Positions 37,044-47,465 of a stretch of DNA of 64,000 bases are shown here, one piece after another (the stretch's first letter is position 1; every line of letters starts with the position of its first letter). Location of the stretch: contig JBLHJR010000006.1 of NCBI GenBank assembly GCA_047619205.1, forward strand, positions 77-64,076, in the 5' to 3' direction. Both the position numbers and the translations under genes were made by a program. The DNA is from Candidatus Endobugula sp. (GTDB taxonomy: Bacteria > Pseudomonadota > Gammaproteobacteria > Pseudomonadales > Cellvibrionaceae). Below the pieces are notes generated by a model. That model was not told the DNA's origin, searched no databases, and was given only the letters and a program-made list of their open reading frames with translations.

Positions 37044-40000
37044 TTAAAGTTTTACCAAGTGAACCAACTTAGAGACCAAAACAGCCACCATTGAAAAATT
37101 ATAGGCAGGCTTTGACTTAGCCAACCACACTAAATCTAAATAACTTTTCAAAGAAGGAAATATTTTATCTGTTTGGTTATTTTCATGGGGTGACGACAAT
37201 AAGTGCCTCAAGGCTTTGACATGATGACTTTCTATTTTTGACACTAAAAATTTCTTATTTTTTCTTTTCCAGCTATCGTCTACCGCGATTTTTTCCATAA
37301 GTTCGTACAACCAAAATATATCTAGCTCTTCACCAATACGGAAAAAGTTATGTAAAACCGTATCACAATCTATAGAAAACTCTTCCGCTATTTTAGCTAA
37401 AGGCAAGACATAATAAGAATAATTTAAAGAATATACTGCTTTAGCAAGATCGAGGCCGACGCCTTTGTTGACCTCTAAACCTACAAGATTATTAAAGCTT
37501 TCTAGATCTTGCGGCGGCATATAAGCCTGTATATTTTCATCTAAGGCAAGCAATATCGACTGATAAGTTTGCACTAAATGATTCACATCTCCCTCTATAC
37601 CCTCTTGTATCAGCCACGTCATAGCTTTATCTAATGGGTAATGAATAGCTAACTGCAGATCCAGTAATACACTACTATCAACAACATACATCAATTGATC
37701 TATTGCATCATATAAATGATTCACACCGAAAATTTCTACAGCAACTATATGTGCTTTTACGAGTGGTGTAATACTGGCTGTATCCTCTTCCAGAACATAG
37801 TTACAGAAAGTAGCGCCCATGCGATTAGCAATATCATTGGTGAGGTAGCTCGCCAATATTTCTTTGCGTAGCGGATGGCTTTTAATATAGCTAGGGTAAG
37901 TTTCCACCAGTTTTTTAGGAAAATAATTAAGCAATAAGGTTTGAAAAAACTCATCTTCAATGAGATCAGAATCAACCAGTGTGTTAAACAATCGACTTTT
38001 ACTATAAGCTAACAACGTTGCCAGCTCTGGCCGTGTAAAACTTTTCTGTGCAGCGATTCTACTTTCTATGTTTTCAGGGGAAGGTATGCAAGCCAGTTCA
38101 CGATCAAGTACATTGTCTCGCTCTAACAAATTAATTAACTGGACAAAACTATCAAAGAAAAAAGGTGAGGTGTAATTTGATTGGCTCAGCATTTTACTCT
38201 GTCTAAAGTTATTATTTAACACCAAATCGGAAACAGAAGAAGACATGCTGGCAAGAAATTCATTGCGCTGCTCATGAGTCATCAAACCATCTTTTATTAC
38301 TTCCTGTAATAAAATCTTAATATTCACTTCATGGTCAGAACAATCAACCCCTGCCGAATTATCGACCGCGTCCATATGAATCAAACCACCACTCAAGGCA
38401 AATTCAACTCTAGCTTTTTGGCTCAAGCCTAAATTTCCGCCTTCAGCAACTACGCTCGCATGTAACTCCGTCGCATTAATACGCACTCGATCGTTAGCTT
38501 TGTCACTAACATCAATATCCGTTTCATCAGACGCTTTCACGTAAGTGCCAATACCCCCATTCCACAACATGTCCACATTAGCGCACAAAATAGCTTTGAT
38601 GAGAGCGTCAGGCGTCATACTTAAATCATCAGTCGAAATATTCAGGCATCGAGCAGCCTCCACAGAAATGACAATATATTTTTTAGTCCGGTCAAAAATC
38701 GCGCCGCCCTCTGACAATAGAGTACTGTTGTAATCTCCCCAAGAAGAATAAGACAGCTCAAATAAACGCTTTCTTTCACCGTAACTTCGCTTAGCATTAG
38801 GGGTAGGGTCAATAAAAATATGTTTATGATTAAAAGCCGCCACTAGCTTAATATTTTTTGACAACAACATTCCGTTACCAAAAACATCACCAGACATATC
38901 ACCAATACCGACAACCGAAATGGCATCGTTATCAATATTTTTTCCGCTTTCTGAAAATAAGCGTTTTGCCGACTGCCATGTGCCCTTTGCCGTAATACCC
39001 ATTTTTTTATGGTCATAACCATACTGGCCACCAGAAGCAAAGGCATCACCTAACCAATACTTATATTCAGCTGCGATGGTATTAGCGAAGTCAGAAAATG
39101 TTGCAGTACCTTTATCGGCAGCCACAACCAAATACGGGTCTTCATCATCATGCCTAACCACCTGTGCTGGCGGTATTGTTTTACCGTCAATACGATTGTC
39201 GGTAAGATCGAGTAAGGCACGAATAAAAATTTCATATCCTGCTTTAATATATGCCGGGTATGAACGCTTGGAGGCATCAATATTATCGACTTTACAAATA
39301 AAGCCACCCTTAGCGCCGACAGGAACAATGACAGAATTTTTCACCATCTGAGCCTTCACCAAACCGAGCACTTCGGTGCGATAATCTTCTGCTCTATCAG
39401 AAAAACGGATACCACCGCGCGCGACTTTACCTCCACGCAAATGCACACCTTCTACATATTGGTTATAGATAAAAATCTCATAAGCGGGAACAGGCTTAGG
39501 AATACCGTCGATATGACGAGGTTCTATTTTAAAACTCAGCGCACTACCGCCATCATCAACATAACTAGGCTTGTAAAAGTTAGTTCTAGTAATAGCTTTC
39601 AACACGGAAAAATACCGCCGACATATTAAGTCATCATCTCTGCCATGAATCAAATCGATACAAGTAGATATTTTTTCTGCCACTTCACTTAAATCGGTTT
39701 TCTCATCGTCAACAGAAGGGGAAAACTTCAATGTAAAGTATTCAATTAATAGCTCGGCGACTTCTTTATGCTTAATTAAGCTCTTAAAAAGAGTATCCAC
39801 ACTAAAGTTAATTTTTATTTGCTGAAGATACTTAGTCAGCGCTCTTAACACTGGCAAGTAATGAATAGAAACATCAGAAAAAAGTGCTAACTTATTTAAC
39901 ACATCATTCTCCGCATGTCCGGAGAACAATTCCGCCAAAAAATCTTCCAGCTCCTTATTTAAGCCATTATTTTCTTGTGGTATTTTTGGCGAATCTTGAA

Positions 40001-40217
40001 CCTCAAAGGCCAGCTGCCATGACTCGCTATCTTTTTCGCTTAAATTACACTGTGCAATAGACAAACCCAAATTTTCTAAAATTGGCACTGCCCTAGAAAG
40101 AGTCAGTTTTTTACCTGTTCCATCCACATACAAAAATAACTTATTGTTTATTTTATCCAGTGAAAAATGTGTCTCACTGATTGATAAATCGTCAACTGCC
40201 GCACTGAAAATGTTCAT
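37044..40217 (-). CDS. Large-type NAD-glutamate dehydrogenase, N-terminally shortened (1057 aa)
   Basis: HLRGGKVARGGIRFSDR, KAQMVKNSVIVPVGAKGGF, DPYLVVAADKGTATFSD, GIGDMSGDVFGNG, EGGNLG, DNSAGVDCSDHEVNIKI. Confidence 0.92.
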   Translation of the reverse strand: MNIFSAAVDDLSISETHFSLDKINNKLFLYVDGTGKKLTLSRAVPILENLGLSIAQCNLSEKDSESWQLAFEVQDSPKIPQENNGLNKELEDFLAELFSGHAENDVLNKLALFSDVSIHYLPVLRALTKYLQQIKINFSVDTLFKSLIKHKEVAELLIEYFTLKFSPSVDDEKTDLSEVAEKISTCIDLIHGRDDDLICRRYFSVLKAITRTNFYKPSYVDDGGSALSFKIEPRHIDGIPKPVPAYEIFIYNQYVEGVHLRGGKVARGGIRFSDRAEDYRTEVLGLVKAQMVKNSVIVPVGAKGGFICKVDNIDASKRSYPAYIKAGYEIFIRALLDLTDNRIDGKTIPPAQVVRHDDEDPYLVVAADKGTATFSDFANTIAAEYKYWLGDAFASGGQYGYDHKKMGITAKGTWQSAKRLFSESGKNIDNDAISVVGIGDMSGDVFGNGMLLSKNIKLVAAFNHKHIFIDPTPNAKRSYGERKRLFELSYSSWGDYNSTLLSEGGAIFDRTKKYIVISVEAARCLNISTDDLSMTPDALIKAILCANVDMLWNGGIGTYVKASDETDIDVSDKANDRVRINATELHASVVAEGGNLGLSQKARVEFALSGGLIHMDAVDNSAGVDCSDHEVNIKILLQEVIKDGLMTHEQRNEFLASMSSSVSDLVLNNNFRQSKMLSQSNYTSPFFFDSFVQLINLLERDNVLDRELACIPSPENIESRIAAQKSFTRPELATLLAYSKSRLFNTLVDSDLIEDEFFQTLLLNYFPKKLVETYPSYIKSHPLRKEILASYLTNDIANRMGATFCNYVLEEDTASITPLVKAHIVAVEIFGVNHLYDAIDQLMYVVDSSVLLDLQLAIHYPLDKAMTWLIQEGIEGDVNHLVQTYQSILLALDENIQAYMPPQDLESFNNLVGLEVNKGVGLDLAKAVYSLNYSYYVLPLAKIAEEFSIDCDTVLHNFFRIGEELDIFWLYELMEKIAVDDSWKRKNKKFLVSKIESHHVKALRHLLSSPHENNQTDKIFPSLKSYLDLVWLAKSKPAYNFSMVAVLVSKLVHLVKL

Positions 40218-40219
40218 AT

Positions 40220-41146
40220 TTATGAAGTGATTTTAAAAAATTGTTTATGTAAAATGAGTTCTGCTTCTGCTTCACTCACATCGATAGCATGAAAAGACAC
40301 TTTTGTTCCCGGCAAACTTTGTGCAAGTTTTGAAAGATCAAGGTACGTTACGCAACCAATAAGGGGATAGCCCCCCATAGTTTGCCGATCTCTCATGAGC
40401 ACAATAGGTTGCCCGTCTTTTGGCACCTGAATGGCACCCATAGAGATCCCCTGAGAAATGATCCCCGCCAATGGTGTAACAATAGGCTCGCCAGACAACC
40501 GATAGCCCATGCGATCAATGTTTTGAGTCACTTCATATTGCTTATGACTAAATTTTTTCTGCGCATCGATACCCGCCGAGGTTTGCGATACATTAGGCAT
40601 ATAGCGCAAGATAATGTCCTTGGGATACTCTGGAATAAAACGAAAAGGCACCTGCTTGGCGGTTTCTGCTGAATGGGACGTGTAAGGTAAAACATCATCC
40701 TTAGCTAGCTTTGCACCATTTTGTGAAAGGCCACCTAACTTTTCTCGCACCACGGTTGAACTACTGGATAATTGCTTAACAATATCAAAACCGCCCTTGA
40801 CCGCTAGGTAACAGCGCAACCCAGACACAGGAGAAGAAAACTGTATAACATCTCCCGACTTAACTGCATACGAACACCAAGGAAAAATTTCCTGCTGATT
40901 TAGCGTGCAGCCTAAATTAGCGCCACAAATAGCCATCATAGTATCTTCGGTGAACACAGCAGAAAAGCTGCCGTAACTGATTTCTAGCTGAGCCGCGTCA
41001 TAATGATTATCCAATAGATAATTTGCCCACAAAAAGGCGTGCTCATCTAATGGGCCACCATTAGTCACGCCAATACTTTGGTAACCATATCGGCCGTAGT
41101 CTTGTATTAGCGCTAGAAAATTAGAATGTACTATTTTTAGTGACAT
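40220..41146 (-). CDS. pxpC: 5-oxoprolinase subunit C
   Basis: IQDYGRYGY, YLAVKGG, DRMGYRL, DRQTMGGYP. Confidence 0.9.
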   Translation of the reverse strand: MSLKIVHSNFLALIQDYGRYGYQSIGVTNGGPLDEHAFLWANYLLDNHYDAAQLEISYGSFSAVFTEDTMMAICGANLGCTLNQQEIFPWCSYAVKSGDVIQFSSPVSGLRCYLAVKGGFDIVKQLSSSSTVVREKLGGLSQNGAKLAKDDVLPYTSHSAETAKQVPFRFIPEYPKDIILRYMPNVSQTSAGIDAQKKFSHKQYEVTQNIDRMGYRLSGEPIVTPLAGIISQGISMGAIQVPKDGQPIVLMRDRQTMGGYPLIGCVTYLDLSKLAQSLPGTKVSFHAIDVSEAEAELILHKQFFKITS

Positions 41147-41829
41147 TAGAATGTTCCGCCCAATTTAATATATTCTGCCTTGCTGATAGCGTTAAATTTC
41201 ACTTTATCACCAGCAGAGAACTGGGTTAAATTTTCACTATCGTAATCAATCAGCTGTATTGGCGTCCTACCAATAATTTGCCAACCGCCCGGAGAATCCG
41301 AGGGGTAAATTGCCGTTTGTTGATCAGCAATACCCAAGCTTCCTCGAGCCACTTTTTTTCTTGGCGTTTCTTTTCGCGGAGTTGAAATACTGTCATCCAC
41401 ATTACCAAGATAAGCAAAGCCCGGCGCGAAACCAATGGCATAAACATCGTAAACCTTATCGGAATGAATTTGGATAACTTGCTGCGCACTTAACTGTGCT
41501 TGATCTGCAATAAAAGGCAAGTCGAGAGCAACTTCCTCACCATAATAAACAGGGATTTGAATGATCGTCTTAGACTCAACACTAGCCGCTTCATCATTAC
41601 AAGTTTTCAGCAGGCTATTTAATTGATTTTTAAAATCTAAACCAGAAATATTCAACACATCAAAAGTAATATGAATAGAGGCATAAGAAGGAATAATATC
41701 GATAATCATATTATTCATCTCCCGCTTAATTTCATTCACCAAATAACTGATGACTTTAAAATTTTCGTGTTCGATGGTTTGTTTGAATAAAATAACCAGG
41801 GTGTTTTCAGAAATGACAACGATATTCAT
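41146..41829 (-). CDS. pxpB: 5-oxoprolinase subunit B
   Basis: IIPSYASI, IPVYYG, IGFAPGFAYLG, SPGGWQIIGRTP. Confidence 0.9.
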   Translation of the reverse strand: MNIVVISENTLVILFKQTIEHENFKVISYLVNEIKREMNNMIIDIIPSYASIHITFDVLNISGLDFKNQLNSLLKTCNDEAASVESKTIIQIPVYYGEEVALDLPFIADQAQLSAQQVIQIHSDKVYDVYAIGFAPGFAYLGNVDDSISTPRKETPRKKVARGSLGIADQQTAIYPSDSPGGWQIIGRTPIQLIDYDSENLTQFSAGDKVKFNAISKAEYIKLGGTF

Positions 41830-41830
41830 A

Positions 41831-42559
41831 TTAACTTAATACATCTCGAATTTTTTGCGCCGATGCAACCGCTAGGCTACCATCACCGTGAATACAAAGG
41901 GTGTCTGCCACTATATTCATTGCTTTCCCTGAAGTGGTTATGACTTGCTTATCGACAATTAACGATCGTGCTTGCTTTGTAATCGTATCTACGTGACTAA
42001 ATACTGCGCCTTCCTCCTGCCGAGATTGTAAACTGCCATCGTCCATATAGGCGCGATCACAAAACGCCTCAAACAATAAAGTGACTTTACATTTATTGGC
42101 AATATCAATATATCGTTGATTATCTGGCGCAGCCATAATCATCAAAGGAATGCCTGATGGCATTAAGGAAACGGCTTTCACTAGCGCTGTGTAGGTGCCC
42201 TCATCGCGCATCATTACATTGTAAAGAGCACCATGGGGCTTCACATAATCAACATCGACACCATGGGCCCGACAAATGGCTTGCAAGGCACCCACTTGGT
42301 AAAGCGTAATGTTAATCAGTTCCGCCGGAGTAAATTTTATTTCTTTTCTACCAAAACCTAATAGATCAGGATAGCCAGGGTGAGCGCCAATAGCGACGCC
42401 ATGCTTCACCGCAAGCGCCACTGTTGAACTCATTATTTGCGGGTCTGAAGCATGAAAACCACAGGCAATATTGGCCATATCAACATAAGGCATTACCTCA
42501 GCATCCGCGCCCATCTTCCAAGGCCCGTAGCTTTCACCCATATCACAGTTGAGTTTCAT
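41831..42559 (-). CDS. pxpA: 5-oxoprolinase subunit A (LamB/YcsF family)
   Basis: LNCDMGES, ACGFHA, GAHPGYPD, YVKPHGALYN, TLCIHGD; start set at ATG 42559 by SD spacing. Confidence 0.92.
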   Translation of the reverse strand: MKLNCDMGESYGPWKMGADAEVMPYVDMANIACGFHASDPQIMSSTVALAVKHGVAIGAHPGYPDLLGFGRKEIKFTPAELINITLYQVGALQAICRAHGVDVDYVKPHGALYNVMMRDEGTYTALVKAVSLMPSGIPLMIMAAPDNQRYIDIANKCKVTLLFEAFCDRAYMDDGSLQSRQEEGAVFSHVDTITKQARSLIVDKQVITTSGKAMNIVADTLCIHGDGSLAVASAQKIRDVLS

Positions 42560-42575
42560 AGAATACATTCCCTAG

Positions 42576-43880
42576 CTAATTGTTCACTGCTTGAGGCAGA
42601 TAAAGCACAATTTCAGGGAAGATGGTAATAATAACAATGCCGATAGCAATCATAAAAAAGAACGGTAACGCGGCCTTAGCGACATATAAAATATTCTTAC
42701 CGGTCAATGCCTGTATGACGAACAAATTAAACCCTACTGGCGGCGTAATCTGTGACATTTCGACCACTAGCACCAGAAAGATGCCAAACCACATCAAATC
42801 TATACCCTGCTGCTGAACCATTGGCAGTACGATAGAGGTCGTTAACACAATGACCGAAATACCATCAAGGAAACAACCTAAAAGTATAAAGAAAATGGCC
42901 AAATAAATAATAAGCTCAATAGAAGATAAGCCCTGCTCTGCAATCCAAGCCGCTAAGGTTAGTGGAATACCGATAAAGCCCATCGCCAAGGTAAGAAAGT
43001 GTGCGCCGACTAAAATTAAGCCCAGCATACAAGAACTTTTTACCGCTCCTAATACACTACTGCGAAACCCTTTTAGTGAAAAACTACCCGTCACCATGGC
43101 AATAACCAAAGCACCGGTAACACCAAAGGCAGCGGCCTCTGTTGGCGTTGCTATACCCGCATAAATTGATCCTAAAACACCAAAAATCAAAGTGGCAATT
43201 GGAAATAATTTTTTCAGTGCAATAATTTTTTCAGTAGTCGAGTACTTGATATCTTCGTCATTGGTTGCATTTTTCTTACTAAATAAAGACCACGCCATGG
43301 TGTAACACATAAACAAGCCGATCAACATAAGGCCGGGGAAAACACCCGCTAAAAATAAGCGAGAAATAGAGACTTCCGCAGCCACACCGTAAACAATCAA
43401 AATAATGGAGGGTGGAATCAACAAGCCTAAGGTTCCCGATCCCGCCAAGGTACCAATAGACAAGGAATCACTATAACCACGCCGGGATAGCTCTGGTAAC
43501 GTCATACGACCAATGGTCGCCGCCGTTGCAGCCGAAGACCCCGATACCGCCGCAAAAATACCGCAACTTAAAATATTCACATGCAGCAACTTACCAGGCA
43601 ATTTAGCCAGCATAGGGGAAAGCCCCTCAAATAAGTCTTGCGATAGCCGAGTACGAAATAGAATTTCGCCCATCCATATAAATAAGGGCAAGGCCGTCAA
43701 CGACCAGCTGGACGCTGCGCTCCAAGAAGACGTCCCTAGCAGCAAACCCACATTACTACTATCAATTAAAAACAAGCCCAGCATTGCCAATCCCATTAGG
43801 GTTAAGGAAATCCAGACACCGCTCACCAACATTAACAGCATGCAGATGGCTAAAATTAAACCTACAATTGATACATCCAC
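42576..43880 (-). CDS. TRAP transporter large permease DctM
   Basis: SGSSAAT, GTLGLLIPPSI, TPTEAAA, ITPPVG. Confidence 0.93.
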   Translation of the reverse strand: MDVSIVGLILAICMLLMLVSGVWISLTLMGLAMLGLFLIDSSNVGLLLGTSSWSAASSWSLTALPLFIWMGEILFRTRLSQDLFEGLSPMLAKLPGKLLHVNILSCGIFAAVSGSSAATAATIGRMTLPELSRRGYSDSLSIGTLAGSGTLGLLIPPSIILIVYGVAAEVSISRLFLAGVFPGLMLIGLFMCYTMAWSLFSKKNATNDEDIKYSTTEKIIALKKLFPIATLIFGVLGSIYAGIATPTEAAAFGVTGALVIAMVTGSFSLKGFRSSVLGAVKSSCMLGLILVGAHFLTLAMGFIGIPLTLAAWIAEQGLSSIELIIYLAIFFILLGCFLDGISVIVLTTSIVLPMVQQQGIDLMWFGIFLVLVVEMSQITPPVGFNLFVIQALTGKNILYVAKAALPFFFMIAIGIVIITIFPEIVLYLPQAVNN

Positions 43881-43884
43881 AGTC

Positions 43885-44406
43885 TTATACCTCAGATTCT
43901 AATTCTAGTGCGTTTTCGGCATGAACATAGCTAGGCACTTTGCCCATCAGCATGGTTACCAATGCATCCAACATGGCAATAAACAAACACGTCGAGCCAA
44001 TCGCCATCGGCATTTGTATCATCCACAATGGCACGGCTAAATAAGTGTCGGTAACATCGGCAAAATCATAAGCCTCATATACCGTAACCGCAGTGTAAAA
44101 TGCCAAGTATCCACTGATACTCAAACCAATGAATATATTGATATATTCAAAAAACTGTTGTCGTCGACCAGAAAAGCGATTTAATAAGATGGTCACTCGA
44201 ATATGGCCGCCTTCGTTAAAGGTATAGGCGAGACCAAAGAAAATAGTGGCTGACAATAACCAGCCAGCGAAGTCCTCAGAAGAGGGAATGATTTGACCAA
44301 GAAGTCGCGCTGCAATTTGCGCTAAAATTAATGACACCATAAGAATCAAACAGAATCCCGATGCCCATGCTGAAAAAAGATAAAAACTGTCTTTAATTTT
44401 TTTCAT
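43885..44406 (-). CDS. TRAP transporter small permease DctQ
   Basis: Four TM segments, GGHIRVT. Confidence 0.9.
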   Translation of the reverse strand: MKKIKDSFYLFSAWASGFCLILMVSLILAQIAARLLGQIIPSSEDFAGWLLSATIFFGLAYTFNEGGHIRVTILLNRFSGRRQQFFEYINIFIGLSISGYLAFYTAVTVYEAYDFADVTDTYLAVPLWMIQMPMAIGSTCLFIAMLDALVTMLMGKVPSYVHAENALELESEV

Positions 44407-44551: not shown

Positions 44552-45517
44552 TTACTTGTTATATGCATCGATAATCGCTTGACCTTCTGCGCCAGCTTCA
44601 GCTAACCATTCATCAAGCATAGTTGCACCGATAGCTTGCAGCTCGGAAGTCAACGTAGCCGACGGAGCAGAAACAATAATACCCTTATCGCCAAGGATTT
44701 TAGTGTGCTCTACCGCATTTTTAGCACCTAACGCCCAGCCTTTTTTCTCAGCATTAGCCGCAGCTGCCCAAATAACGTCTTGAGTCGCTTGATCTAATTT
44801 AGCCAACACTTTCGAGTTTACAAAGACCATGTTTTTAGGGATCCAAGCGCTAACGGTAGTAAAGTTTTTGATGTAATCCCAGCTTTGATTATTAACACCC
44901 GTACTTGGTGATGTAATCATGCCGTCAATAACACCAGTAGTAAATGCTTGTGCAACTTCACCGAAAGCAACGTTAACTGGAGTTGAACCCATTAAGTCAG
45001 CCAAGCGCGAAGTGGTTGGGCTATACGCACGCATCTTCAAACCTTTCAAGTCAGCCAAACTGTTAACTACCTTATTTGAATATAAATCCTGCGCAGGCCA
45101 AGGCACGGTATAAAGCAAGGTCATGCCATCTTTAGCCAACTGCTTAGTAATTTCAGGCTTAGTGGCTTGATATAACTTTTGCGCCGAATCAAAGGTTGTC
45201 GCTAAAAAGGGCAAGTTATCCAATTTAAATACCGGGTGATTATTGCCTAAGCGGCCACCAAAAACCTCACCAAGTTGAACTTGTCTAGAACGTACTGCAC
45301 CGTAAATTTCAGGATGCTTAATTAAAGATGCGCCTGAGTGAACTTTAATAGTTAACTTATCGCCCGTGTTTTTAGCAATTTCTTCCGCAAACGATCTTGC
45401 TACTTGCGTTGGGTGGTTAGCATCGCCATAAGGTGTAGGCATGTTCCAAGTTTCAGCTAAAGCACTCGCAGAAACTACCATACCCAGTAGCATCGGTAAA
45501 AGTGTTGTTTTCTTCAT
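44552..45517 (-). CDS. TRAP solute-binding protein DctP
   Basis: Signal peptide, WNMPTPY, LKGLKMRAY, VIDGMITS. Confidence 0.92.
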   Translation of the reverse strand: MKKTTLLPMLLGMVVSASALAETWNMPTPYGDANHPTQVARSFAEEIAKNTGDKLTIKVHSGASLIKHPEIYGAVRSRQVQLGEVFGGRLGNNHPVFKLDNLPFLATTFDSAQKLYQATKPEITKQLAKDGMTLLYTVPWPAQDLYSNKVVNSLADLKGLKMRAYSPTTSRLADLMGSTPVNVAFGEVAQAFTTGVIDGMITSPSTGVNNQSWDYIKNFTTVSAWIPKNMVFVNSKVLAKLDQATQDVIWAAAANAEKKGWALGAKNAVEHTKILGDKGIIVSAPSATLTSELQAIGATMLDEWLAEAGAEGQAIIDAYNK

Positions 45518-45621: not shown

Positions 45622-46434
45622 TCAACAATGGCTTACGCTTAAATCCTTATAAGCAAAATCGGTGATTAACATTTTTCCTGGTGCATGCGTAATGACCAAG
45701 GGTAATTTAGCACTTCTAACCGCGGCCTGCGTGGTAACACCACAACCCCAGAACACAGGAATCTCATCATCTTCAATCGGCACAGCAGAACCATAATCCG
45801 GTTGATCCATATTCATAATCCCAATCGACTCAGGACTACCAATATGTACAGGAGCGCCATGAGCTTTAGGAAATTCACTAGTAATGCGCACCACCTCATC
45901 AATATCTTCTTTTTTATAGGGGCGCATCGACACCACCATATTACAATTGAAGTTTTGCGTGCCATTCATCTTGATATTGGTGTCATACATGGAGACATTG
46001 ACACCTAGGCTAATATTTTTTACTGGCAAACCTGCGGCCAGTAAAGCACTTTCGAAGGAAAACGAACAACCTAGCACTACGGCAACCGAATCATCAGCCC
46101 AATACTGTTGAATATCCGCTACGCTAGCAACAAAATTGCCATGTTCAAAAATATGGTACTCAGGGAGGTCGAGCCTAATATCTAGATTTTTTCCTAGGTT
46201 ATCGATGGCGGGGTCACCCGGCTTGGAAACACCCAACAAGGGGCAAGGCTTTGGATTTTTTTGGCAGAATTCGATAAATTCATCAGCAAAGGCCTTAGGC
46301 ATAATCACTAAGTTACCCTGCACCAGATCTGGCATCAAGCCACTAGTGTTATCAACATAATCACCGCTGCGTATGGTTGCTCTAAGCTGCTGAAGATTCG
46401 TCATAACAAAAAACCTATTATTATTAATAAACAA
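45622..46434 (-). CDS. DUF1445/UPF0317 family (YcsI-like) protein
   Basis: QGNLVIMP, NPKPCPLL, LGCSFSFE, VVSMRP, HGAPVHIG, PVFWGCGVT, THAPG; start may be 46404. Confidence 0.88.
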   Translation of the reverse strand: MFINNNRFFVMTNLQQLRATIRSGDYVDNTSGLMPDLVQGNLVIMPKAFADEFIEFCQKNPKPCPLLGVSKPGDPAIDNLGKNLDIRLDLPEYHIFEHGNFVASVADIQQYWADDSVAVVLGCSFSFESALLAAGLPVKNISLGVNVSMYDTNIKMNGTQNFNCNMVVSMRPYKKEDIDEVVRITSEFPKAHGAPVHIGSPESIGIMNMDQPDYGSAVPIEDDEIPVFWGCGVTTQAAVRSAKLPLVITHAPGKMLITDFAYKDLSVSHC

Positions 46435-46477
46435 AAAAGCGTGCTTATTTTCTAAAAATAATATTATTCAAGTTGAT

Positions 46478-46527
46478 TCATAAATTCAAATTATGATTTT
46501 TTCTAGAATTTGATAAGATTTTGTTAT
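46478..46527. promoter_or_regulatory. Two LysR-type T-N11-A boxes
   Basis: TCATAA-N7-TTATGA (46478-46496) and ATAA-N7-TTAT (46513-46527), centres 33 bp apart, upstream of DUF1445. Confidence 0.65.
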
Positions 46528-46574
46528 GCCCGCAATAAAAAGAGGCCTAATATATGGAAATCGATCAGAATTCT

Positions 46575-47465
46575 TTATTGACTGTAGTCAGCAATCACCG
46601 ATTTAGCCAATTCAATCATCGATAACAATTCAGGTTTATGGGGACTCATGGGATAGGAAGCGGTAAAGGTCATATCGGAGGGGTGCCAATCGGTATTAAT
46701 AATGTGTAAACGCCCCTTACGGAGGTCTTTTGCCACCACATCAAGAGGCACTGCTGAAATACCCATACCGTCAACGACCAAGCGTCGACAAACGGCTAAA
46801 GAACTAGACGCGAACAGCCTGGCAGGCCGCTCAGAGCCACGGGCAAATTCACGGGTAATTTCATTGTAAGGTACGGTATTGCGAGCATAAGTAATAATAG
46901 GCCAACGCGATAACGCAGAGGTAGATTGCACCTCAGAACCAATACCTAATGATGGGCTAGCCACCCAAATCAAGGGCATGGTATCGAGATGATCGTTGAC
47001 GATAACAGGGTCTGACAAAGGCCCCACTAAGAAGGCAATATCAATCGCGCCAGTCAATAGTTGCTTTGCTAGGGTGACGGAAACATCCACCGTTAATTCA
47101 ATGGCAACGCTGGGCACATCTTCTTGAAAACGCTTCAAAAAAGTCGAAAGCCATGAGTGCGCGATAGTTTCCGAAACACCAAGACGCAACAAGCCCGAAT
47201 AGGCAGCCTCATTATTTGCTGTGTTAGTGAGTTCTTTAGCAAAGTACACTAGCTTTTCGGCATAAGGCATCAACTCATGCCCCTTGGGTGTTAAAAACAC
47301 CTTACTGTTACCTTCACGTTCAAATAACTTAACGCCTAATTCTTCTTCCAGCAATGATATTCTAGATGAAATGGCAGGCTGGGTTGTACACTGCTGCTCG
47401 GCCGCTTTACTAAAGCTATGCAACTTTGCCACCCAAAAAAATGCTTCTATGCGTTTAAAATTCAT
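46575..47465 (-). CDS. LysR family transcriptional regulator
   Basis: SFSKAAE..TTQPAISSRI..LE.ELGVKLFER HTH; LRLGVSET. Confidence 0.95.
   Translation of the reverse strand: MNFKRIEAFFWVAKLHSFSKAAEQQCTTQPAISSRISLLEEELGVKLFEREGNSKVFLTPKGHELMPYAEKLVYFAKELTNTANNEAAYSGLLRLGVSETIAHSWLSTFLKRFQEDVPSVAIELTVDVSVTLAKQLLTGAIDIAFLVGPLSDPVIVNDHLDTMPLIWVASPSLGIGSEVQSTSALSRWPIITYARNTVPYNEITREFARGSERPARLFASSSLAVCRRLVVDGMGISAVPLDVVAKDLRKGRLHIINTDWHPSDMTFTASYPMSPHKPELLSMIELAKSVIADYSQ

Follow-up and report, generated by a model that had tools for sequence, protein, structure and literature searches.

The window analysed here is a stretch of 64,000 nucleotides from Candidatus Endobugula sp. Its minus strand carries a co-oriented gene cluster encoding a LysR-family regulator, a DUF1445 protein (the second gene), the TRAP transporter subunits DctP, DctQ and DctM, the 5-oxoprolinase components PxpA, PxpB and PxpC, and a NAD-specific glutamate dehydrogenase (NAD-GDH). 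The LysR gene (46575..47465, minus strand), whose product has HTH_1 and LysR_substrate domains, lies upstream of the operon, a position which is kept in relatives. It is co-oriented rather than divergent and is followed by an AT-rich spacer of 170 nucleotides (46405-46574), in which simple scans found neither a sigma-70-like promoter nor a terminator.

The DUF1445/UPF0317/YcsI-family coding sequence (45622..46404, minus strand) encodes 260 amino acids and is supported by profile matches, PDB matches and homologue length. It is present in a single copy in the 3.04-Mb genome, which is 97.6% complete. The open reading frame as listed is longer, spanning 45622-46434 on the minus strand and encoding 270 amino acids from a TTG codon. 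The start at TTG 46434 was rejected for the ATG at 46404, which is probably the true start, because the homologue P0002 (96% identity) has a length of 260 amino acids, the alignment to the NCBIfam profile NF003969 begins at residue 11 of the 270 amino acid form, and no Shine-Dalgarno-like sequence was seen upstream of the TTG. All residues are numbered from ATG 46404.

Concerning family membership, a first-pass annotation had assigned the protein to DUF1445 and had pointed to two cysteine motifs, LGCSFSFE and WGCGVTTQ. Both observations were borne out. The protein matches PF07286 (D-Glu_cyclase, formerly DUF1445) with an E-value of 9.9e-63 and 210.7 bits against a cut-off of 25 (profile 1-143/143), and NF003969 ('putative hydro-lyase') with 368.1 bits against an equivalog cut-off of 324 (profile 9-264/266). 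In the PDB it matches 3DB9 (E 2.8e-69) and 2PIF (E 1.8e-66) by sequence. LGCSFSFE, containing Cys113, is encoded at 46051..46074 and WGCGVTTQ, containing Cys221, at 45727..45750, both on the minus strand, and with them the family-wide motifs GCSF and CGVT are present. The window protein is a typical member of the already annotated family UPF0317/PF07286, for which we found 3241 significant cluster representatives at 50% identity. In the literature searched, neither an enzyme assay nor any other study of bacterial DUF1445/UPF0317 members was found.

The remainder of the operon suggests a metabolic setting for this protein. DctP (44552..45517, minus strand) belongs to a pyroglutamate-binding subfamily of TRAP solute-binding proteins and matches 2PFZ (E 2.1e-84) and 2PFY (E 5e-82), which we take to be Bordetella pertussis DctP6 and DctP7. 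Both B. pertussis proteins were solved with bound 5-oxoproline, DctP7 having a Kd of 0.3 uM, as PMC13274462 summarises. The membrane subunits DctQ (43885-44406) and DctM (42576-43880), assigned by Pfam, are followed by PxpA (41831-42568), PxpB (41146-41829) and PxpC (40220-41146), assigned by Pfam and NCBIfam, all on the minus strand. Transporter and PxpA, PxpB and PxpC are thus co-oriented and tightly spaced, as in prokaryotic 5-oxoproline utilisation operons. The last gene encodes a short-form NAD-specific glutamate dehydrogenase (37044..40217, minus strand; Bac_GDH_CD, E 5e-231), which would provide the last catabolic step to 2-oxoglutarate. This dehydrogenase has merely 1057 amino acids, its Pfam catalytic domain being intact, and at E <= 0.001 it matched no NCBIfam model. 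The combination of a pyroglutamate-type DctP, Pxp proteins and GDH therefore indicates an operon which imports pyroglutamate, opens it with ATP and deaminates the resulting glutamate.

At 97.6% completeness, the genome reveals PxpABC as the only 5-oxoprolinase, with one copy of PxpA, and no Hydantoinase_B of an OPLAH-type enzyme was found. The idea that a second, housekeeping PxpABC makes the one in the window a specialised paralogue was rejected, as only one PxpA was found. DUF4392 (PF14336) was found neither in the genome nor in the window. A MurI-type racemase is encoded in the genome.

To place the gene in a wider context, we compared 80 loci from species-representative genomes whose DUF1445 proteins are 47-70% identical to the query. 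A subset of 53 loci is well flanked, with at least 5 kb on each side, and neighbours were considered within 10 kb. Of these well-flanked loci 35 have a 5-oxoprolinase within 10 kb, either PxpABC (26 loci) or the non-homologous, single-chain OPLAH-type enzyme (9 loci); 17 have none within this distance, and 13 carry DUF4392. The architecture of the window, LysR-DUF1445-TRAP-PxpABC, recurs at 13 of the 80 loci compared; cultured relatives sharing this operon include Marinobacter flavimaris and Marinomonas spp. Nine further loci show LysR-DUF1445-TRAP with OPLAH replacing PxpABC, one of which (L016) was checked gene by gene with Pfam. At L016 (3020-12662), and also at L010, L022, L070 and L079, a LysR-DUF1445-DctPQM operon ends in an OPLAH-type protein of 1213 amino acids consisting of HyuA and HyuB. 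Operons of this type occur in Burkholderiales-like and other Pseudomonadota genomes, and a second DctP gene is present at L016. The exchange of PxpABC for OPLAH is a case of non-orthologous displacement inside an otherwise conserved operon. The second common form, found at 16 of the 80 loci, is an operon of DUF1445, PxpABC and DUF4392; at L013, for example, genes for a class IV aminotransferase and a LysR regulator lie close to a cluster in the order DUF1445-PxpA-PxpB-PxpC-DUF4392.

Protein fusions tell a similar story. Among the best 150 of the 3241 cluster representatives, 42 are of fusion length. In 25 of these 42 the partner is DUF4392, in both domain orders, and in six it is an oxoprolinase domain. 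Complete OPLAH-DUF1445 proteins of about 1480 amino acids are represented by P0180, from Planctomycetota, and by P0232. Four of the 42 (P0128, P0131 and two others) have an MGMT-type DNA-binding domain (PF01035) N-terminal to DUF1445, and a PLP-dependent PALP domain is present in one representative, P0175; both arrangements may be gene-calling fusions. Since PxpABC and OPLAH replace each other in relatives and OPLAH is fused to DUF1445, the domain is tied to 5-oxoproline. These links, in operons and in fusions, to two unrelated 5-oxoprolinases are strong evidence that DUF1445 acts on 5-oxoproline, on glutamate or on both. The first-pass annotation had likewise proposed a 5-oxoproline link, and the PxpABC operon, the OPLAH operon of the same architecture and the OPLAH fusion all sustain it. 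We regard it as secure that the window protein is a predicted catalytic member of UPF0317 whose function is linked to the uptake of 5-oxoproline and the opening of its ring.

The loci lacking an oxoprolinase raise the question of a related but different substrate. Acting before or after 5-oxoprolinase, DUF1445 could be a gamma-D-glutamyl cyclotransferase-type lyase that sets 5-oxoproline free from a gamma-glutamyl compound, or a lactam or amide hydro-lyase for a different imported amino-acid derivative. The 17 of 53 well-flanked loci mentioned above speak for this. Loci without an oxoprolinase are flanked chiefly by LysR regulators and by uptake systems of the TRAP or LIV-type ABC kind, and a Pfam scan of neighbouring open reading frames at 37 non-Pxp loci repeatedly gave TRAP DctP, LysR, binding proteins of LIV-type ABC systems and, in some cases, M20 peptidases. 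Moreover, PxpABC paralogues of Pseudomonas putida hydrolyse other lactams (bioRxiv 10.1101/2021.12.09.472016), and one Cys-less DUF1445 variant is translationally coupled to peptidoglycan genes (see below). Against it stand the closest relatives (47-78% identical), which have a pyroglutamate-type TRAP transporter and an oxoprolinase, and the 45% identity to the animal D-glutamate cyclase domain, which argues for D-glutamate/5-oxo-D-proline chemistry. For the protein in the window we consider such a different substrate rather unlikely.

Structural information was obtained from an AlphaFold2 model of the window protein built from 42 homologues (pLDDT 92.8, pTM 0.88). A Foldseek search against the PDB matched 2PIF (E 2e-29, TM 0.85), and an independent fold search with VIA across 48,161 PDB representative chains gave a family match with Z 30.8 over 245 aligned residues. 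These structures, PSPTO_5379 (2PIF) and Atu3911 (3DB9), share the fold of the window protein (Z 30.8, TM ~0.85), 40-44% sequence identity and both cysteine motifs; both are structural-genomics entries without an assigned function. According to the VIA match ranges, the fold consists of two ferredoxin-like subdomains, one formed by residues 112-227 and the other, which is discontinuous, by residues 25-111 and 223-254. The sole notable match outside the family is the NrpR-like domain MJ0159 (3NEK), with Z 9.3 and an rmsd of 3.6 A over 165 residues; by Foldseek it reaches E 3.8e-6 with a TM of only ~0.4. The remaining matches are ferredoxin-like or PII-like subdomains at Z < 5.

NrpR is a 2-oxoglutarate sensor, and in view of the NrpR-like match the DUF1445 fold might serve to bind C5 dicarboxylates in general. 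The same match permits a reading in which DUF1445 assists 5-oxoprolinase in a non-catalytic or regulatory way, perhaps as a ligand- or redox-sensing subunit with the cysteine pair as a disulfide switch, and the frequent embedding of DUF1445 among pxp genes would fit such a role. 3NEK is a ligand-sensing domain of a transcription factor rather than an enzyme and is 12% identical to the window protein. Against a regulatory role, the conserved polar and charged residues described below are typical of an active site, DUF1445 also occurs with transporters alone, and the animal fusion protein is an enzyme. A regulatory partner is thus very improbable.

Conservation was assessed in 150 representatives of 50%-identity clusters, the best 150 of 3241, with identities to the query of 35-54%. 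Some 20 alignment columns reach a conservation of 95% or more, and for some 30 others it is 85-95%. Among the former, the polar or charged residues are Arg8, Tyr83, Ser114, His182, Thr224 and Asp249, and among the latter Asp75, Asp79, Arg161 and His240. Position 113 is cysteine in 139 of 147 representatives (serine in five, glycine in three) and position 221 in 132 of 137 (serine in three, histidine and threonine in one each). Two other cysteines, Cys47 and Cys54, are semi-conserved and far more variable across the 150 representatives. Cys113 and Cys221 are both invariant in the 42 multidomain relatives, among which are the D-glutamate cyclases of snake and fish. At the level of sequence, the occurrence of this pair exceeds chance. 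Covariation is uninformative for the two positions, as they and their neighbouring residues are nearly invariant.

Both cysteines occupy equivalent surroundings. Cys113 follows a strand (residues 106-111) and stands at the N-terminus of a helix (115-123), while Cys221 follows the strand 214-220 and stands at the N-terminus of the helix 223-232. By the subdomain ranges given above, they mark the two points at which the chain crosses from one ferredoxin-like subdomain to the other, and from this placement they would be expected to be near neighbours in the cleft between the subdomains. Our claim of a pseudo-repeat is confined to an hhalign profile comparison of residues 100-160 with residues 205-257, two segments that do not overlap; overlapping pairs gave trivial self-matches and were disregarded. 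The comparison aligned 26 columns with cysteine on cysteine (P 2.2e-4, probability 45%); a control segment pair gave P 0.22. The two cysteine elements are therefore pseudo-equivalent, as in two-base racemases.

Three variants lacking the cysteine pair (S/S, G/T and S/H) were examined, and all of them are located outside pxp contexts. The variant with serine and histidine replacing both cysteines, at L087 (1612-4895; also L088 and L089), lies downstream of an AMIN-domain AmiC-type amidase, and its start codon overlaps the stop codon of a class A penicillin-binding protein gene, so that the two are translationally coupled. This is a peptidoglycan-linked context, unlike the pxp operons.

The two cysteine motifs had led to the earlier suggestion of a cofactor-independent racemase. 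In this reading DUF1445 is a 5-oxoproline racemase whose cysteines form a two-base pair that inverts C-alpha, turning 5-oxo-D-proline into 5-oxo-L-proline for PxpABC or OPLAH. The aspartate/glutamate and hydantoin racemases of PF01177, MurI among them, as well as DapF and proline racemase offer a working analogy, as they too have two conserved cysteines at the N-termini of helices, one from each of two pseudo-symmetric halves on either side of a cleft. The near-invariance of the cysteines (~95%), their strand-Cys-helix surroundings, their cysteine-on-cysteine alignment and their position at pseudo-symmetric crossovers are all in line with this. So is the proposed product, which is the exact substrate of both unrelated 5-oxoprolinases with which DUF1445 is fused or shares operons. 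Where DUF4392 is present as well (16 of 80 loci, among them L013), a DUF4392 cyclase, a DUF1445 racemase and a Pxp ring opener would give every gene a role. The confinement of the three examined Cys-less variants to sites outside pxp contexts also agrees with it, and the searchable literature describes no 5-oxoproline racemase, which leaves the niche open. If this reading is true, 5-oxo-D-proline, imported or made from D-glutamate by DUF4392, becomes the L-form which is opened by the ATP-driven 5-oxoprolinases.

Nevertheless, no relation in sequence or fold to the known cofactor-independent racemases was seen. The Pfam scan of the window protein at E <= 0.001 gives PF07286 alone and no match to PF01177, and the PF01177 genes of this genome are located on other contigs (C75 and C26). 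Neither Asp/Glu racemase, DapF nor proline racemase is among the Foldseek and VIA fold matches, although such an absence of a match is not equivalent to a different fold. Two conserved cysteines alone do not establish racemase activity.

A further argument comes from the animal enzyme. Vertebrate DGLUCY (C14orf159; EC 4.2.1.48) has an N-terminal PF07286 domain which, in the snake protein, shares 45% identity over 251 residues with the window protein, and it keeps both motifs as LGCSF(S/T)FE and FW(G/A)CGVT (LGCSFTFE and FWACGVT in the snake). The earlier statement placing this domain in the D-glutamate cyclase of mammals is accordingly correct (PMC5339696), as our comparison with the vertebrate N-terminal domain confirms. 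Mouse DGLUCY converts D-glutamate to 5-oxo-D-proline, as demonstrated with resolved D and L standards, and has neither glutamate racemase nor oxidase activity; its loss raises D-glutamate in the heart, and humans excrete mainly the D form of 5-oxoproline (PMC5339696). Since the mouse enzyme yields only 5-oxo-D-proline, and the snake and fish orthologues retain both cysteines, the racemase reading is weakened. What stands of the earlier proposal is a pair of near-invariant cysteines in pseudo-equivalent strand-Cys-helix elements, arranged as in two-base racemases; what speaks against it is the lack of detectable similarity to a known cofactor-independent racemase and the behaviour of the mouse enzyme. 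That DUF1445 is a 5-oxoproline racemase of the proposed kind is therefore doubtful, and we think it equally unlikely that the family represents a cofactor-independent two-thiol racemase with a fold unrelated to known racemases, serving a previously undescribed ATP-driven D-to-L glutamate salvage. The first-pass annotation had offered, as an alternative, that the protein cyclises D-glutamate to feed the L-specific PxpABC. This proposal is chemically incomplete: cyclised D-glutamate is 5-oxo-D-proline, and is therefore unusable by L-specific PxpABC unless racemisation also exists. Katane et al. 2018 are said to have found D-glutamate cyclase to be stereospecific in both directions.

The comparison with known systems also reveals differences. 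The animal enzyme is a fusion of DUF1445 and DUF4392 (PF14336) with a function in mitochondrial detoxification, whereas the window protein has a single domain of 260 amino acids and is encoded in a bacterial TRAP-PxpABC-GDH operon. For the DUF4392 protein TON_0340 an invariant di-manganese site has been described, and its authors suggest that the fusion serves sequential reactions (PMC5132392). In none of the papers we examined on the animal D-glutamate cyclase is the activity attributed to a particular domain. In Bacillus subtilis, YcsI, a name that JGI annotation also gives to relatives, belongs to the same family PF07286 and is likewise embedded with PxpABC, in the operon order pxpA (ycsF)-ycsG-ycsI-pxpB (kipI)-pxpC (kipA) (PMC10448178). 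There, however, the partner transporter is the Mn2+ importer YcsG and not a pyroglutamate-type TRAP system; an activity of YcsI is reported neither in PMC10448178 nor elsewhere in the literature searched.

Most plausibly, the coupling of DUF1445 to 5-oxoproline degradation serves the D-enantiomer, which the L-directed pathway would otherwise leave unused. We tentatively favour, at somewhat less than an even chance, the reading that DUF1445 catalyses the ATP-independent, reversible reaction 5-oxo-D-proline + H2O <-> D-glutamate (EC 4.2.1.48) and thereby provides a D-branch. In such a pathway, the LysR-controlled operon would take up pyroglutamate by the TRAP transporter and degrade it via PxpABC and NAD-GDH. 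The L-enantiomer would be opened by PxpABC with ATP, and 5-oxo-D-proline imported by the same transporter would be opened to D-glutamate by DUF1445. D-Glutamate could then be converted to L-glutamate or 2-oxoglutarate, here via the MurI-type racemase of the genome and in other organisms via a D-amino-acid transaminase. Both cysteines, placed in the cleft between the ferredoxin-like subdomains, might act as an acid/base pair or as nucleophile and proton donor. Family membership, conservation of the cysteines, the place of their motifs in the secondary structure and the links by operon and fusion are established by the data. It is in the above terms that we infer the substrate, the direction of the reaction, the catalytic role of the cysteines and the domain of the animal enzyme which carries the cyclase.

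This D-glutamate cyclase, run toward ring opening, is consistent with several lines of evidence and requires no new chemistry. The window protein exceeds the curated thresholds for both PF07286 and NF003969, and it is 45% identical over 251 residues, with both cysteine motifs kept, to the domain of a vertebrate enzyme whose mouse counterpart makes 5-oxo-D-proline from D-glutamate (PMC5339696). The association with a 5-oxoprolinase in 35 of 53 well-flanked loci, the recurrence of the window's architecture in 13 of 80 loci and of its OPLAH version in nine, and the full-length OPLAH-DUF1445 fusions P0180 and P0232 all point to the proposed substrate, as does the operon DctP, which is closely related to the 5-oxoproline-binding DctP6/7. 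The class IV aminotransferase near the DUF4392-linked operon at L013 is sensible if D-glutamate is an intermediate, and the MurI-type racemase in the genome of the window could use D-glutamate. Moreover, an ATP-independent 5-oxoprolinase has been reported in Alcaligenes, according to a reference cited in PMC13274462, and to this extent ring opening without ATP is physiologically feasible.

Several points weigh against the cyclase reading. DUF4392, with its di-manganese site (PMC5132392), could be where catalysis takes place in the animal enzyme, and no DUF4392 was found in the genome studied here, at 97.6% completeness. If the cyclase were freely reversible, it could deplete the D-glutamate pool that serves the cell wall, and two symmetric cysteines are not obviously required by a simple hydro-lyase. 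5-Oxoproline ring opening without ATP is thermodynamically uphill, and therefore concentrative uptake or a strong downstream pull is needed. Also, the literature searched gave no bacterial member with measured activity.

What this study adds are the cysteine statistics, the pseudo-repeat at the crossovers, the displacement of PxpABC by OPLAH, the OPLAH fusions and the argument from the mouse enzyme against a racemase. With PxpABC and OPLAH interchanged in one operon, and with OPLAH fused to DUF1445, the choice of substrate is narrowed to 5-oxoproline/glutamate. The family UPF0317/YcsI is large, with >3000 clusters at 50% identity, and is distributed from bacteria through vertebrates, and the window offers a clean, minimal setting for it, with no DUF4392 partner, one 5-oxoprolinase and a pyroglutamate-type transporter. 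An answer to the question of cyclase/hydrolase versus racemase would show which of its domains the animal D-glutamate cyclase uses for catalysis, and would explain the bacterial use of D-pyroglutamate and cell-wall D-glutamate.
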